A stretch of 64,000 nt of DNA from a plasmid. Below are positions 3,948-34,261 of the stretch, piece after piece (within the stretch, counting starts at the first letter, position 1; each line of letters opens with the position of its first letter). The translations under genes were made by a program, and so were the position numbers. Under the pieces are notes generated by a model that saw nothing but the letters and a program-made list of their open reading frames with translations, ran no database searches and was not told the DNA's origin. The stretch lies in assembly GCF_055900595.2 (NCBI RefSeq), contig NZ_JBVWEU010000003.1; one strand, given 5' to 3'.

Positions 3948-4931
3948 TTACTGTTTACGGTGCTGATTCCCTTCGCCGTAAATTTGACAATCTCCGCGCC
4001 CGGGGTGCGGAGATTGTCGCTCGTTATATGGTTTGAATGCCTGTTTTTGCTGTTTCATTTCATTTATCAAAAAATCAGTAAATGCTCTTACTTTGGGGGA
4101 CAATTGCCTGTTAGTCGGCCACATTATCATTAAGTCTCCAAAAGGGGCCATGAACTCGGTCAACACGGGATATAATTCACGTGATTCTAATGCATCATGA
4201 GCAACATATATGGGAAGGTGGGCCAGACCTAACCCATTTACTGCTGCATATAACCCCGCGTATGTGTTATTGAAAATGAAGTTTTGAGGTAGTGTTATAT
4301 TTTTATATGGTGGAATGAATGACCATGGAGCGATCTTTCCATTAGATGGATATTTAAAATGAATACAGCTATGTTCTGATAATTCCGATGGGATTTGTGG
4401 AGCGCCATATCTGTCTAAATAGGAGTAACTACCACATACAACGAAATGTTGCTTCCCTATATATCTGCTTACTAACCTTGAGTCTACGGGATTACCGCTT
4501 CTTATTGCTATATCTATACCTTCTTTTATGATATCCACAACATGGTCTTCAAAGTCAATATCTAAATGGATTTCAGGATATAATAAATTAAACTTTGATA
4601 TTAACGGCATTAATAGTTTATGCCCAAATATATGAGGTGCTGTGATGTGCAAGGTTCCCCTGGGAGTACACATATTTGATGAAATGATTTCTTTTGCACT
4701 ATATAGTTCATCTAATATTAAACAGCATCGTTCATAAAACAAGAAACCATTTTCTGTTAAACTAATACTTCTTGTTGTTCTATGGAAAAGTCTTGTTCCA
4801 AGTTCATCTTCCAGCTTTGATATACTTTTTGCAATAGCGGAGGGAGATAGCCCAAGAACTCTGGCAGCTTGTGCGTAGCTATTATGTTTTACCGCATATA
4901 CAAATGCGGTTATACCTTGGAAACCCTTCAT
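3948..4931 (-). CDS. LysR-family transcriptional regulator
   Basis: N-terminal HTH (YAQAARVLGLSPSAIAKSISKLEDELG…LFHRTTR) plus ~300-aa co-inducer domain; divergent from the adjacent operon; AT-rich codon usage. Confidence 0.85.
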   Translation of the reverse strand: MKGFQGITAFVYAVKHNSYAQAARVLGLSPSAIAKSISKLEDELGTRLFHRTTRSISLTENGFLFYERCCLILDELYSAKEIISSNMCTPRGTLHITAPHIFGHKLLMPLISKFNLLYPEIHLDIDFEDHVVDIIKEGIDIAIRSGNPVDSRLVSRYIGKQHFVVCGSYSYLDRYGAPQIPSELSEHSCIHFKYPSNGKIAPWSFIPPYKNITLPQNFIFNNTYAGLYAAVNGLGLAHLPIYVAHDALESRELYPVLTEFMAPFGDLMIMWPTNRQLSPKVRAFTDFLINEMKQQKQAFKPYNERQSPHPGRGDCQIYGEGNQHRKQ

Positions 4932-23652: not shown

Positions 23653-24150
23653 CTTCGGCTCCCGGCTGCCTGACGGCATCCGGTCGTCAGGCCCGACTCC
23701 GACAGGCAGCTGCTGGCGCACCCGCCAGTCTCCGCCGAACCCGCTGGCGCGGTTTCGGGCTGTCGCTACGGTCCGATGCGTGAAAACCCGGGCTTGCAGC
23801 GACCGTTCCGGTCGCGCCGCCCCTGTCGCGCCGTGACCTGCGCTCCCTGCACACCTGACGGTGTGTGAGGAAACTGCGCCTGATGGCGCAGCAGTCCTCC
23901 CTCCTGCCGCCACCCCTGCGGCCTGTTTCCCGCTGTGGACTTTCCGGGGGGCAGACGTAACCCCCTCCCGTTCCATCTGTCCAGGGTGAGATGCACCGGC
24001 CACAAAATTTTTAGCCATGAACCCGGCAAAAAATTTTGCGTCCGCCCCCGGACAGCTGCCCCGTGAGGCGGTAAACGGGCCCCCATCGGAAAGGTCCACT
24101 GCGGGGAGAAACCCCTGTGAAGTGGACGGCAGGAGGAGCTTTCGCTCCTC
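23653..24150. repeat. Leading-region structured repeat, family B, copy 1 (upstream of ssb; single-strand-promoter-like)
   Basis: About 500 bp shared with 30005-30512 and, in part, 33030-33365; contains hairpins CACACCTGACGGTGTG and CTGCGCCTGATGGCGCAG. Confidence 0.65.
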
Positions 24151-30004: not shown

Positions 30005-30512
30005 CCTTCGGCTCCCGGCTGCCTGGCGGCATCCGGTCGTCAGGCCCGACTCCGACAGGCAGCTGCTGGCGCACCCGCCAGTCTCCGCCGAACCCGCTGG
30101 CGCGGTTTCGGGCTGCCGCTACGGTCCGATGTCTGAAAAACCAGGCCTGCAGCGACCGTTCCGGTCGCGCCGCCCCTGTCGCGCCGGAAACGGCGCTCCC
30201 TGCACACCTGACGGTGTGTAAGGCCACTGCGCCTGATGGCGCAGTTGTCTGCCCTTCCGCCGCCACCCCTGCGGCCTGTTTCCCGCTGTGGACTTTCCGG
30301 GGGCTGAAGCGGCCACAACACGTTTCAGCCGTCCAGGGGAGAGATGTACCAGCCACAAAACTTTTTGCCGCAGGCGTCAAAAACTTTTGCGTCTGCCCCC
30401 GGACAACTGCCCCGTGCCGTGGCAGTCGCTGCCCCATCGGAAAGGTCCACTGCGGGGAGAAACCCCGAAGAAGTGGACGGCAGAAGGGGCTTTCGCCCCT
30501 CCGGGGAATAAC
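30005..30512. repeat. Leading-region structured repeat, family B, copy 2
   Basis: Shares the hairpin-rich sequence with copy 1; immediately precedes the ORF at 30555. Confidence 0.65.
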
Positions 30513-30554
30513 CGGTCGGCCCGGCGACCTGATTCAGCAGAAGGAGACGTTTTC

Positions 30555-31348: not shown

Positions 31349-31412
31349 TTAACCCTTGCCGTCTGCCTGTGCAGGCGGCAGGATACGTTCAGACATCTCA
31401 CCAGGAGGAACC

Positions 31413-32330
31413 GTGAGTAAGAAGAAAACCACCACGACGCCCACGCCGCATGATGCCGCGTTCCGGTCGTTCCTGGCGAACCCCGACGTCGCCAGAGATT
31501 TTCTGGAACTGCATCTTCCGGCGGAGTACCGGCAGTTGTGCGACCTGTCCACGCTGAAGCTGGAACCCGCCACCTTTGTTGAGCCGGACCTGCATCAGTA
31601 CGCCAGCGATATCCTCTGGAGTGTGAAAACCACCGGGGGTGAAGACGGCTATATTTATACGCTCATCGAGCACCAGAGCACCGAAAATCTGTACATGCCT
31701 TTCCGCATGTTACGTTACAGTGTGGCGGCGATGCAGAGACATCTGGAGCAGCACAAAACATTGCCACTGGTGATTCCGGTGCTGTTCTATCATGGTGAGC
31801 GCAGCCCGTACCCGTACAGCATGAACTGGCTGGACTGTTTTGAGGATCCGGCACTTGCGGCTAAAATATACACAAAGCCGTTTCCGCTGGTTGATATCAC
31901 TGTCGTTGATGACAATGAAATCATGAACCATCGCCGGATGGCCGCACTGACGCTGCTGATGAAGCATATCCGTCAGCGGGATATGCTGATGTGTCTGGAC
32001 AACCTGGTCAGGGCACTGCAGGACATCCAGGATGAAGAGCAGATTACAGTTCTTTTCAACTATCTGCTTAATGGCAGCGAACATGTAACGGTTAAATTTT
32101 TGCAGACGCTGGCGCAGCGACTGCCGCAGCACGAGGACAGCATTATGACACTGGCAGAACGTCTTAAGCAGGAAGGAATACAGCAGGGAATACAGCAGGG
32201 AATACAGAAAGGCCGCATGGAGGAGAAGCTGGATATTGCGCGTCAGCTTCAGAAAACGGGAATGTCATTTGCACAAATCTGTCAGATCACCGGACTTTCT
32301 GAAGCCGAACTGAAAAAAATCGCCCACTGA
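31413..32330 (+). CDS. Rpn-family (YhgA-like) recombination-promoting nuclease
   Basis: GTG start 7 bp after AGGAGG; N-terminal HDAAFRSFLANPDVARDFLELHLP and YTLIEHQST motifs typical of Rpn proteins; C-terminal QQGIQQGIQQGIQKG tail. Confidence 0.7.
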   Translation: MSKKKTTTTPTPHDAAFRSFLANPDVARDFLELHLPAEYRQLCDLSTLKLEPATFVEPDLHQYASDILWSVKTTGGEDGYIYTLIEHQSTENLYMPFRMLRYSVAAMQRHLEQHKTLPLVIPVLFYHGERSPYPYSMNWLDCFEDPALAAKIYTKPFPLVDITVVDDNEIMNHRRMAALTLLMKHIRQRDMLMCLDNLVRALQDIQDEEQITVLFNYLLNGSEHVTVKFLQTLAQRLPQHEDSIMTLAERLKQEGIQQGIQQGIQKGRMEEKLDIARQLQKTGMSFAQICQITGLSEAELKKIAH

Positions 32331-32342
32331 GTAAACATCACA

Positions 32343-32368
32343 GCCCGGCAAAATGCCGGGCTTTTTTG
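32343..32368 (+). terminator. Rho-independent terminator after the Rpn gene
   Basis: GCCCGGCAAAATGCCGGGC hairpin followed by TTTTTT. Confidence 0.6.
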
Positions 32369-32394
32369 TCAGCAGGAGCAGAGCAAACAGCATG

Positions 32395-32550
32395 ACGATT
32401 GCAGAACGTCTTATTCAAAAAGGCGCTCTTGAAGTGGCGCGGGAAATAGCCTGCCGGCTTCGGGATATGGGCTGGACGCCGGAACGGATTCAGGAGGCAA
32501 CCGGACTTTCCGGTGAAGAACTGAAAAAACTGTTTCCTGATGAGCTGTAG
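32395..32550 (+). CDS. Free-standing small protein resembling the Rpn C-terminal tail (RpnS-like)
   Basis: MTIAERLIQKGALEVAREIACRLRDMGWTPERIQEATGLSGEELKKLF parallels the last ~55 aa of the adjacent Rpn (MTLAERLKQEG…ICQITGLSEAELKKIAH). Confidence 0.45.
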   Translation, partial: TIAERLIQKGALEVAREIACRLRDMGWTPERIQEATGLSGEELKKLFPDEL

Positions 32551-32580
32551 CCTGGCATTCTGCCAGGCTGTGAATCACGC

Positions 32581-32832
32581 TCACACATCCTCTGCCGTTT
32601 CCCCCAGTTCATTTTCCAGTCGCCTGATGATATCTGCCTTACGCATCCCCTGCATGTGAGGCAGCAGGTCACGGACTGAAAGAGCCTGGGTGGTCCTCCA
32701 GACGGTGACGTCCACCTGTTCCGCATTTTCCCAGGCGTGCCATGTTCTCTGCGTCACGCCAAATTCTCTGGCCGCTTTTTCGCGTGACCAGAGCATGCTT
32801 TTTCGCCAGATTCGCAGTTCCCAGCCGGTCAT
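32581..32832 (-). CDS. Putative small HTH DNA-binding regulator
   Basis: 83 aa; KAAREFGVTQRTWHAWE is HTH-like; divergent from the downstream operator-like palindromes. Confidence 0.4.
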   Translation of the reverse strand: MTGWELRIWRKSMLWSREKAAREFGVTQRTWHAWENAEQVDVTVWRTTQALSVRDLLPHMQGMRKADIIRRLENELGETAEDV

Positions 32833-32844
32833 AAAACACCTTTG

Positions 32845-32935
32845 AAAAAGTGAAAAAACTTCACTTTATTTTATCATCATAATCATCAAATCAGCGCGAT
32901 AAATAAGTGTGAAAAAGTGAAGAAATTTCACTTTT
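32845..32935. promoter_or_regulatory. Two operator-like palindromes AAAGTGAA-N5-TTCACTTT
   Basis: Two copies about 65 bp apart in an AT-rich spacer between the HTH gene and the family-B repeat. Confidence 0.4.
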
Positions 32936-33029
32936 TTTTGATTGTGGGTGTCGTGCTGTTTTCTCTGTTTTCACCTGTGCGGGAGTGGTGCGCCAGTGAC
33001 CACAGCATGCCGTTGTTGTGCCGTCGGTT

Positions 33030-33365
33030 TTCTCCGGTCGCGCCGGATGCGGCGCTCCCTGCACACCTGACGGTGTGTAAGGCCACTGCGCCTGATGGCG
33101 CAGCTGTCTCTGCCTGTCTGCCGCCGCACTGCGGCCCGTTCTCCGCAGACGGACTTTCCGGGGGTACATACACGACCACATCCCGTTTCAGTCGTCCAGG
33201 GGAGAGATGTACCAGCCACAAAACTTTTTGCCGCAGGCGTCAAAAACTTTTGCGTCTGCCCCCGGACAACTGCCCCGTGACGTGGTGAGCGTCCCCCGTC
33301 GGAAAGGTCCACTGCGGGGAAATCCCCGAAGACCCGGACGGCAGAAGGAGCTTCGCTCCTCCGGG
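33030..33365. repeat. Leading-region structured repeat, family B, copy 3 (partial)
   Basis: Shares the distal ~330 bp of copies 1 and 2; precedes the ORF at 33410. Confidence 0.6.
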
Positions 33366-33409
33366 AAATGACCTGGCTGACCCGGCAGTCGTGACGATGA
33401 GGAGACAAT

Positions 33410-34261
33410 GTGATGAATCAGACTTTACCCACTGCTGACCTGAATACTGCCGGCACGACAGATGTTATTCCGTCTGTGGCTATCGACCGCATCATCGCGC
33501 AGCGTAACGAAGGTATTACACTGTTCATGCAGGCGATGGAATGCCTGGCGACAGCGCGCAGGATTCTGCTCGATGCGTCAGGTGATATTTTTCTTTACGG
33601 GTTTGAAGACTGCGTGACTGATTCCGTTCGTCGCATGGATAAACCGGAAGAAGCGAAAAGGAATATCACCCGTCTTGCCGACCGGAAAATCTGGGACCGC
33701 CTGATGACAGATACGGGCATGTACACCTTCATGAGTTCATGCCAGCGTGATGAGTGGAACAGCCAGCTGATGAGCGACACCTGTCCTGAAATCACCCTGG
33801 ACAATGTACTGGCAACATTCCGCCATCTGAATGCCAGCAAAATGCAGACATTTGAACAGGGACTGATTGATGTCTACCGGAAATTGTCATGGGATTACAG
33901 AACCAATAATCCCTGCCGTCTGGGCAAGAAAATCATTATTGAAAACCTGCTGTACCGCTGGAGTAACGGGCGTGTGACGCTGGACTGCAGCGGACGGGAG
34001 GCACTGGATGACCTGGTACGTCCGTTTTATCTGCTGGAGGGGCGCAACGTTCCTGACTTCCGGAGCAGCATCGGGGCGCAGTATTGTGAATTTCTCGGGA
34101 ACGGCGACAATATCGGTGAGTTGTTTGAAGGGGAATATTTTACGGTGCGTGGCTACCAGAAAGGAACCGTACACATTGTCTTTAAGCGTTCTGACCTTGT
34201 TGAAAAACTGAATGATATTATTGCACGGCATTATCCTGGTGCATTGCCGCCACGAGTCTGA
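33410..34261 (+). CDS. Hypothetical 283-aa protein downstream of a family-B repeat
   Basis: GAGGAGA Shine-Dalgarno sequence before the ATG; followed by a terminator hairpin with a T-run (34272-34300). Confidence 0.5.
   Translation: MMNQTLPTADLNTAGTTDVIPSVAIDRIIAQRNEGITLFMQAMECLATARRILLDASGDIFLYGFEDCVTDSVRRMDKPEEAKRNITRLADRKIWDRLMTDTGMYTFMSSCQRDEWNSQLMSDTCPEITLDNVLATFRHLNASKMQTFEQGLIDVYRKLSWDYRTNNPCRLGKKIIIENLLYRWSNGRVTLDCSGREALDDLVRPFYLLEGRNVPDFRSSIGAQYCEFLGNGDNIGELFEGEYFTVRGYQKGTVHIVFKRSDLVEKLNDIIARHYPGALPPRV

Follow-up and report, generated by a model that had tools for sequence, protein, structure and literature searches.

What would a pair of exact palindromes be doing in the short AT-rich gap that separates a small regulator gene from the leading gene nearest to the origin of transfer (oriT) of a plasmid, and, provided that a repressor does sit on them, whose transcription would it be repressing? 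The question is raised by a 64-kb stretch of contig NZ_JBVWEU010000003.1 (hereafter, the window), which comprises the leading region and the transfer region of an IncI-complex (IncK2/Z-like) plasmid, and in which an 83-amino-acid (aa) XRE-type helix-turn-helix (HTH) protein is encoded on the minus strand at 32581-32832. A preliminary description of this DNA had placed two operator-like palindromes in the AT-rich spacer between this divergent HTH gene and the repeat preceding a 283-aa open reading frame (ORF), and both are indeed present there, at 32847-32867 and 32914-32934; their operator-like character is borne out, as far as comparative sequence data can tell, by the occurrence of the same type of palindrome upstream of HTH homologues only 30-50 % identical to this one, where it tracks both the presence of the gene and its recognition helix. 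The answer favored here is that the product is a dimeric XRE-type HTH repressor, that the two palindromes are its operators, and that its own gene is what it regulates, an explanation which, taken as a whole, seems quite probable.

The spacer itself (32833-32940) has a GC content of 26 %, as opposed to 53 % for the window. The palindrome proximal to the HTH gene, O1 (32847-32867), reads AAAGTGAA-AAAAC-TTCACTTT (AAAGTGAAAAAACTTCACTTT in full), and the distal one, O2 (32914-32934), reads AAAGTGAA-GAAAT-TTCACTTT (AAAGTGAAGAAATTTCACTTT in full), both being exact 21-bp palindromes to which no strand is to be assigned, and the arms of O2 reaching 10 nt (32912-32921 / 32927-32936). No match at 0 mismatches was found in 100 dinucleotide-preserving shuffles, and O1 and O2 are the sole matches in the window, be it at up to 3 mismatches or on searching for the core AAGTG-N9-CACTT at 1 mismatch, while in a complete 92-kb related plasmid they alone score at least 14 of 16. 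A regulon was accordingly rejected, as no further operator copies exist in the window or in the complete related plasmid, and the lack of any other site on the latter indicates that the protein would act locally. The two sites form part of the two copies of a 39-nt direct repeat, which are 82 % identical and begin 67 bp apart. The HTH start codon is separated by 15 nt from the edge of O1, whose centre is 25 nt upstream of the ATG, and there are 67 bp between the centres of O1 and O2. Within each site, the inner pentamers GTG(A/C)A and T(T/G)CAC are 10 bp apart centre-to-centre and flanked by A/T tracts, a distance that would correspond to the usual XRE dimer geometry. An additional AAGTG half-site is found at 32905-32909, 10 bp upstream of the left arm of O2 (ATAAGTGTGAAAAAGTG), and is not conserved in the 79 % identical lineage introduced below.

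Whether such palindromes belong to the adjacent gene was addressed by comparing 35 homologous loci (designated by L numbers) from Enterobacterales, a site being defined as a match to AAGTG-N9-CACTT in at least 9 of its 10 core bases, no more than 150 nt upstream of the HTH start. At least one upstream site is present in 25 of the 35 loci, and the 41 matches in 4620 upstream positions, set against 10 in 277,462 positions elsewhere, amount to an approximately 246-fold enrichment. Palindromes of the type (A)AAGTGCA-N5-TGCACTT(T) stand directly upstream of distant homologues (30-50 % identity) from Pectobacterium, Erwinia, Yersinia, Citrobacter, Rahnella, Buttiauxella, Enterobacter, Pluralibacter, Hafnia, Pantoea and Providencia, with further distant homologues coming from Candidatus Symbiopectobacterium and one metagenome contig, and the resulting operator consensus is AAGTG(C/A)A-N5-T(G/T)CACTT. 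The variation within this consensus goes along with that of the protein: recognition helix RTWHAWEN is paired with GTGAA/GTGTA, RTWHxWEN and RxYKxYE are paired with GTGCA, and the GIS...RTYKRYE group is paired with GTGAC, while among the family loci compared the AAGTG-type site is absent for RTYQxYEK proteins; in one locus (L033) the operator has changed symmetrically to GGTGCA..TGCACC. The motif is also absent from the regulator-less leading regions of F, IncL/M and IncFIB(K) plasmids.

These observations also bear on whether the sites are instead bound by a host factor, such as CRP, rather than by the adjacent protein, to which the GTGA...TCAC contained in them lends some appearance. The CRP consensus is TGTGA-N6-TCACA, with a spacing of 6 nt, whereas the GTGA-to-TCAC spacing here is 7 nt and the homologous loci have GTGCA/TGCAC or GTGAC instead; as the motif, moreover, goes with the HTH gene both in occurrence and in sequence type, a host factor is barely credible. 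That the palindromes are operators of the adjacent HTH protein is, on these comparative grounds, strongly supported. Two Gilliamella loci (L029, L030), whose divergent homologues begin with MNGYELKIWR..., have another perfect palindrome, AAATACGAAAAATTTTCGTATTT, approximately 40 nt upstream of the HTH start, which suggests a switched operator specificity.

The placement of the sites relative to the promoter of the HTH gene points to what they would be controlling. The proximal site begins 31-35 nt before the ATG in most loci, a TAnAAT -10-like hexamer abuts it in approximately 18 of 26, and a promoter scan puts the -10 end at -30 to -35 in the window as well as in L002, L010, L011, L013, L015, L016 and L026. 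In the window, the predicted extended -10 element, TGATAAAAT (32868-32876, minus strand), directly abuts O1, and a Shine-Dalgarno sequence, AAGGTG, can be read 4 nt before the HTH ATG (32837-32842, minus strand). As the HTH transcript is predicted to start inside O1, a dimer bound there would occlude RNA polymerase, and since O1 lies so close to the start codon and abuts a conserved -10, the main target would be the regulator's own promoter; blocking of RNA polymerase by the O1-bound dimer would thus result in negative autoregulation, which, judging from the sequences compared, is strongly supported as the best-supported function. The lineage of L002, 79 % identical, seems instructive in this regard, for O1, the adjoining ATTTTATCAT and O2 are conserved in it and the 67-bp spacing is retained, while the 34-bp spacer is scrambled. 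HTH-operator regions of the L002 type occur in about 150 large Salmonella plasmids (e.g., NZ_CP016411.1, 33824-34264), many of which have two matching places, and the sizes of these plasmids (170-320 kb) are typical of pESI-like megaplasmids.

The same arrangement helps to weigh the notion that the palindromes function as RNA or DNA hairpins, i.e., as weak bidirectional terminators, as attenuators, or as an RNA stem-loop in the 5' untranslated region that blocks translation once the protein binds it, as has been reported for Aca2. The Aca2 protein itself binds IR2 RNA. The paper on Aca2 proposed that IR2, being located in the 5' untranslated region, might fold into a hairpin that acts post-transcriptionally. 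Each site could indeed fold into a hairpin of 8-11 bp with a U/T run behind it (-6.3 to -9.4 kcal/mol as RNA, with U8 following site 2 on the plus strand), and symmetric operator changes would preserve the hairpin as well as the operator. The stems, however, have just 2-3 G-C pairs and are not called by a terminator scan; the primary sequence AAGTG/CACTT is conserved across 30-50 % protein identity, which is beyond what pairing calls for; and, with the -10 abutting the site, the transcript would begin within the palindrome, devoid of its 5' arm, all of which makes a hairpin role very improbable. An intrinsic terminator proper was rejected, as there is no G+C-rich stem with a T run and the terminator scan was negative. 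Neither do the palindromes form part of the ssDNA-promoter hairpin described below, as they fold separately and lie more than 150 nt from its base.

If O1 is where polymerase would be blocked, what is O2 for? In the operator reading, O2, 67 bp upstream, would be an auxiliary site acting cooperatively or depending on the face of the helix. The distal-to-proximal distance falls into classes of 45 bp (L003), 54-57 bp (seven lineages) and 64-67 bp (L035, the window and L002), some loci having three sites at 55-56-bp steps, and these classes, being about one helical turn apart, suggest cooperative binding or a face-of-helix constraint. They might just as well bring to mind an activator-then-repressor switch, in which binding at O2 (at about -60) initially stimulates a promoter whose -35 is poor and binding at O1 later represses it, the outcome being a delayed, sharp pulse; C proteins of restriction-modification systems and lambda CI at PRM are precedents for such behavior. 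The -35 hexamers are poor family-wide, the distal-site centres lie at approximately -41, -51 and -61 from the predicted start, with the one-turn periodicity typical of activators contacting RNA polymerase, and twin palindromes do resemble C-boxes. Against this, many loci keep the gene with the proximal site alone, the extended -10 of the window and L002 should need no activation, and in the clade discussed next the good site is 845-1121 bp off, from where it cannot activate, so that an activator switch appears rather improbable.

In that clade (L012, L015, L033, L027 and L034), insertions of three different toxin-antitoxin modules, namely RelE with an XRE antitoxin, HigB with an HTH antitoxin, and an HTH protein with an unknown protein, separate the far site from the HTH promoter (L012 3184-3849; L027 971-1716; L034 2935-3705; also in L015 and L033), the modules bringing their own, different operators. 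The far operator, AAAGTGCAATAATT(A/G)CACTTT, nevertheless persists across the modules with 9-10 of the 10 core bases, as an island of identity between diverged flanks, beside a small terminator-like hairpin and, in every case, at the edge of a GC-rich structured element of the ssDNA-promoter type upstream of a leading gene; the proximal sites of the same clade are more degenerate (7-10 of 10 core bases). The RelE-type modules of L012, L015 and L033 have twin palindromes of their own, ATTCGTACTCAGTACGAAT, approximately 29 bp apart, and a strong divergent promoter (TTGATA-17-TATAAT in L012, TTGTAA-17-TATAAT in L015 and L033).

The persistence of the far operator leads to the question of what lies on its other side. 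On the plus strand of the window, ArdA, two small ORFs, a gene for an Rpn/YhgA-like nuclease (31356-32330) and a 65-aa fragment of an Rpn tail are followed by the minus-strand HTH gene, the AT-rich spacer, an ssi/Frpo-type repeat and the DUF4942 gene (33410-34261, plus strand, 283 aa; Pfam PF13708, E 1.9e-50, in agreement with the annotation of related plasmids), which is the plus-strand leading gene nearest to oriT, and then by a 113-aa minus-strand ORF, oriT, nikA and nikB. A stretch of 1.15 kb around the HTH gene and the palindromes is common to more than 2000 plasmids of Escherichia, Salmonella, Shigella and Klebsiella at 80-99 % identity, 401 bp of it being 100 % identical to the IncK2/Z plasmid NZ_MG825371.1. 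The structured repeat of approximately 350 nt is present in three copies in the window (23822-24150, 30175-30525 and 33034-33390), 80-86 % identical and each upstream of plus-strand leading genes. The last of them, the "family-B repeat" of the preliminary description, is homologous to Frpo1 of the F plasmid and has the same orientation, and it is classed here, from this homology and its fold, as a plus-strand class-1 ssi/Frpo-type single-stranded DNA (ssDNA) promoter. As class-1 ssDNA promoters ssi1-3 have been described for IncI1 plasmids, the homology to Frpo1 implies that the three copies are presumably these ssi1-3. Since the leading genes on the plus strand are read from the transferred strand, the latter corresponds to the window's minus strand, which, folded as ssDNA, has a large hairpin at approximately 33090-33345 (-135.6 kcal/mol, z -7.9).

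A similar setting recurs elsewhere, the regulator being a lone gene, antiparallel to the leading genes on both sides, in most plasmid loci, with Antirestrict, DUF5983, DUF932, DUF1281, DUF4942 and ParB_N among these neighboring leading genes. All 12 of the site-bearing plasmid-type loci tested have a strongly folding segment of 59-68 % GC at -400 to -150, with crude z-scores of -1.2 to -9.8 obtained from only 10 mononucleotide shuffles. This layout, along with the folding segments, places the regulator systematically against the transferred strand, beside an ssDNA-promoter-like element near oriT.

It was from this neighborhood that the preliminary description had derived a dedicated repressor of a leading-region gene, separate from the structured-repeat promoters. 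Taken as a repressor of the 283-aa gene, it would operate on a conventional spacer promoter reading rightward through O2 and the ssi repeat. There is a candidate for such a promoter, a weak sigma-70-like GTGAAA-16-TATCAT (32850-32877, plus strand, 9 of 12 matches), which is the only match in 32300-33500, has its -35 inside O1 and O2 downstream of it, and is conserved in L002; an analogous rightward promoter is present in L035, which also carries DUF4942, and the far operator is kept next to the structured element despite the toxin-antitoxin modules separating it from the HTH gene. The candidate, however, is absent from most lineages, being kept in the window and L002 only, and a distance of 476 bp separates O2 from DUF4942, which has a class-1 ssDNA promoter of its own in front of it; leading genes of this type have been reported to shut off on conversion to the double-stranded form, with no repressor invoked. 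The partner of the regulator also differs by locus (DUF932, DUF1281 or DUF4942). Homologues of DUF4942 (47-52 % identity) occur in at least 3000 plasmids (at least 5000 plasmid records), among them thousands of IncL/M and IncFIB(K) plasmids with an identity of about 51 %, and the two such loci sampled, L041 (IncL/M, of pOXA-48 size) and L042 (IncFIB, Pluralibacter), have DUF4942 in co-directional leading-type clusters with neither the regulator nor the motif. Because the DUF4942 genes of other plasmid groups thus do without both, and given the varying partners, a weak and lineage-specific rightward promoter and the gene's own ssDNA promoter, this part of the preliminary description could not be upheld, and a dedicated DUF4942 repressor is considered unlikely. 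In the PHROGs database, the DUF4942 domain is connected with the C-terminal portion of DNA methyltransferases (phrog_6263).

As for the protein itself, its match to Pfam HTH_31 (E 7e-5) scores 23.5 bits against a gathering cutoff of 27 and that to HTH_3 scores 16.8 bits against a cutoff of 23, whereas among the aligned homologues 23 of 23 match HTH_31 (best E 5.8e-7) and 20 of 23 match HTH_3. The AlphaFold2 (AF2) model, with a predicted local distance difference test (pLDDT) value of 90.3, is a compact bundle of five helices (residues 3-12, 17-24, 28-35, 42-60 and 65-76) and has the XRE-type fold. An AF2 model of a tandem fusion (predicted template modeling score, pTM, of 0.76, with pLDDT above 90 for each half) would be compatible with a homodimer. 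The family, with the consensus MTGxELRLWRKGxxWxQExAAxELGVSLRTYxxYE, numbers 171 cluster representatives in a search of 1.8 billion proteins at E <= 1e-3 and matches the phage family phrog_6962 at E 1.8e-13; a word-indexed protein search retrieved close IncI relatives and frameshifted fragments only, the distant homologues having been reached via a profile search and a genome scan. Against the PDB, the family profile finds Aca2 (E 6.5e-6 across residues 1-54), and Aca2 also comes first among the top Foldseek matches, followed by HipB, HigA2 and SinR, all at E >= 0.13, so that the nearest relative of solved structure is the HTH domain of Aca2. Truncated homologues of 55 aa are found in two Providencia chromosomes (L036 and L037, around position 4001) as orphans flanked by pyrD (dihydroorotate dehydrogenase) and pepN, the one in L037 retaining one AAGTGAC...GGCACTT site and the one in L036 none.

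Does the HTH protein then belong to any of the systems that it resembles? Aca2 of phage ZF40 (PDB 7ezy, 7vjp) is likewise a small HTH autorepressor whose own promoter/5' region contains two inverted repeats, and it limits the expression burst that follows the entry of a mobile element into a cell. Aca2, however, has approximately 115-125 aa and a C-terminal dimerization domain, whereas the HTH protein has 83 aa and no such domain (Pfam Aca2_YdiL, PF08965, is matched by just 1 of 23 family members, at E 0.045); the Aca2 repeats are TTCG-N6/8-CGAA as opposed to AAGTG-N9-CACTT; and Aca2 is co-transcribed downstream of an anti-defense (acr) gene, whereas the HTH gene is monocistronic and antiparallel to its neighbors. 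Differing from Aca2 in domain composition, operators and operon layout alike, the HTH protein is outside the Aca2 family. The controller (C) proteins, e.g., C.AhdI and C.PvuII, are XRE HTH dimers of approximately 80 aa that use paired palindromic operators as a timing device after host entry, and they are comparable in layout only, that is, in being small XRE HTH proteins with paired palindromes upstream of their own genes. No restriction or methyltransferase gene is linked to the HTH gene, its neighbors being Rpn, DUF4942 and nikA/nikB, and O1 and O2 are of another sequence and 67 bp apart, whereas C-boxes are adjacent. HipB and other XRE antitoxins share both the fold and autorepression on spaced palindromes; unlike them, the HTH gene has no toxin adjoining it, the toxin-antitoxin modules inserted alongside in some loci being separate and having operators of their own.

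Autoregulated plasmid repressors tied to establishment or leading genes are also known, e.g., ArdK of pKM101/R388 and KorA/KorB of RP4. For Reg576 of the Bacillus plasmid p576, autoregulation and a transient establishment/leading expression after transfer have been described (PMC6294495). Reg576, however, belongs to the ribbon-helix-helix proteins and has its operators at four promoters, whereas the HTH sites occur at one plasmid locus, and the genes under its control lack the ssDNA promoters that the leading genes beside the HTH gene have; because its sites are confined to a single locus, the HTH protein would not be a global establishment repressor. It is best filed as a member of an uncharacterised XRE-type family, the sites and the family being newly described here.

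A further, purely nominal resemblance should be mentioned, as IncI annotations name the HTH gene "ygeA". An identity with YgeA of the F plasmid was rejected, BLASTP giving E 0.15 over 8 residues. The F-plasmid YgeA (L004, NC_002483.1, 64032-64319) has 95 aa and is encoded on the leading-gene strand downstream of Frpo1, whereas the HTH gene is on the other strand. The shared name is an annotation coincidence, and the data on F YgeA, which is a leading protein studied by live-cell microscopy (Couturier 2023), are inapplicable to the HTH protein because the two proteins are unrelated.

Several points weigh against the autorepressor explanation as a whole. Ten of the 35 homologous loci (phage-like or chromosomal contexts, and Gilliamella) do not have an AAGTG-type site, the loci are phylogenetically related, so that neither the counts nor the spacing classes are independent, and the z-scores of the 12 folding segments are as rough as the few shuffles behind them. 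The -35 elements are poor throughout and the start site is a predicted one. As several plasmid loci have a single site, O2 would not be essential. The literature searches returned nothing on the HTH protein, and a transposon-directed insertion sequencing (TraDIS) study of I-complex plasmids leaves the gene unmentioned. Finally, a protein that does nothing except regulate itself would be of no obvious benefit, which implies that a target is missing from the explanation.

A G+C-rich 9-bp hairpin, AGCCCGGCAAAATGCCGGGCT, followed by T6 is located just past the Rpn/YhgA-like gene (32342-32362), and the HTH gene converges on this terminator. The 65-aa ORF after the hairpin (32353-32550) resembles a duplicated C-terminal tail of Rpn, and antisense to it runs a GTG-started minus-strand ORF of 57 aa (32411-32584) that shares a GTGA overlap with the stop codon of the HTH gene and is probably spurious. 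A toxin-antitoxin role of the HTH protein was rejected, there being no partner gene adjacent other than this doubtful ORF.

Where, then, might the missing target be sought, and when would the regulator be acting? Because it is encoded on the strand opposite to that of the neighboring leading genes, the HTH gene would not be transcribable from the incoming single strand; it would be switched on only after complementary-strand synthesis and would then shut itself off. Once the DNA is double-stranded, the bound repressor might also block conventional transcription entering the ssi-DUF4942-oriT segment from the AT-rich spacer or from the upstream genes. Such a boundary or silencing role on double-stranded DNA (dsDNA) is plausible, if tentatively so, because the far operator persists at the border of the structured element and the action of the protein seems to be strictly local. 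A bolder version, which has to be regarded as speculative and rather doubtful, would see the whole HTH family as a "late" switch sealing the first-entering operon (DUF4942 or DUF932, by oriT) against conventional transcription and read-through. If this were true, the switch would act in addition to the ssDNA promoter's passive loss, its gene being on the non-transferred strand and the protein being made only after conversion to the double-stranded form, whereupon it would bind at the ssDNA promoter's border, in helical register with the promoter of its own gene.

Should the HTH protein turn out to regulate only itself, the finding would be a routine one. Leading regions are, however, under active study as early-expressed anti-defense islands run by ssDNA promoters, and the shut-off of the leading program in established cells has been attributed only to the loss of the single-stranded promoter. 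The operator motif could be used for annotating loci of the HTH regulator, and the regulator family of IncI-complex, pESI-like and other plasmids, together with its operator, would constitute a testable candidate for dsDNA-dependent control near oriT.

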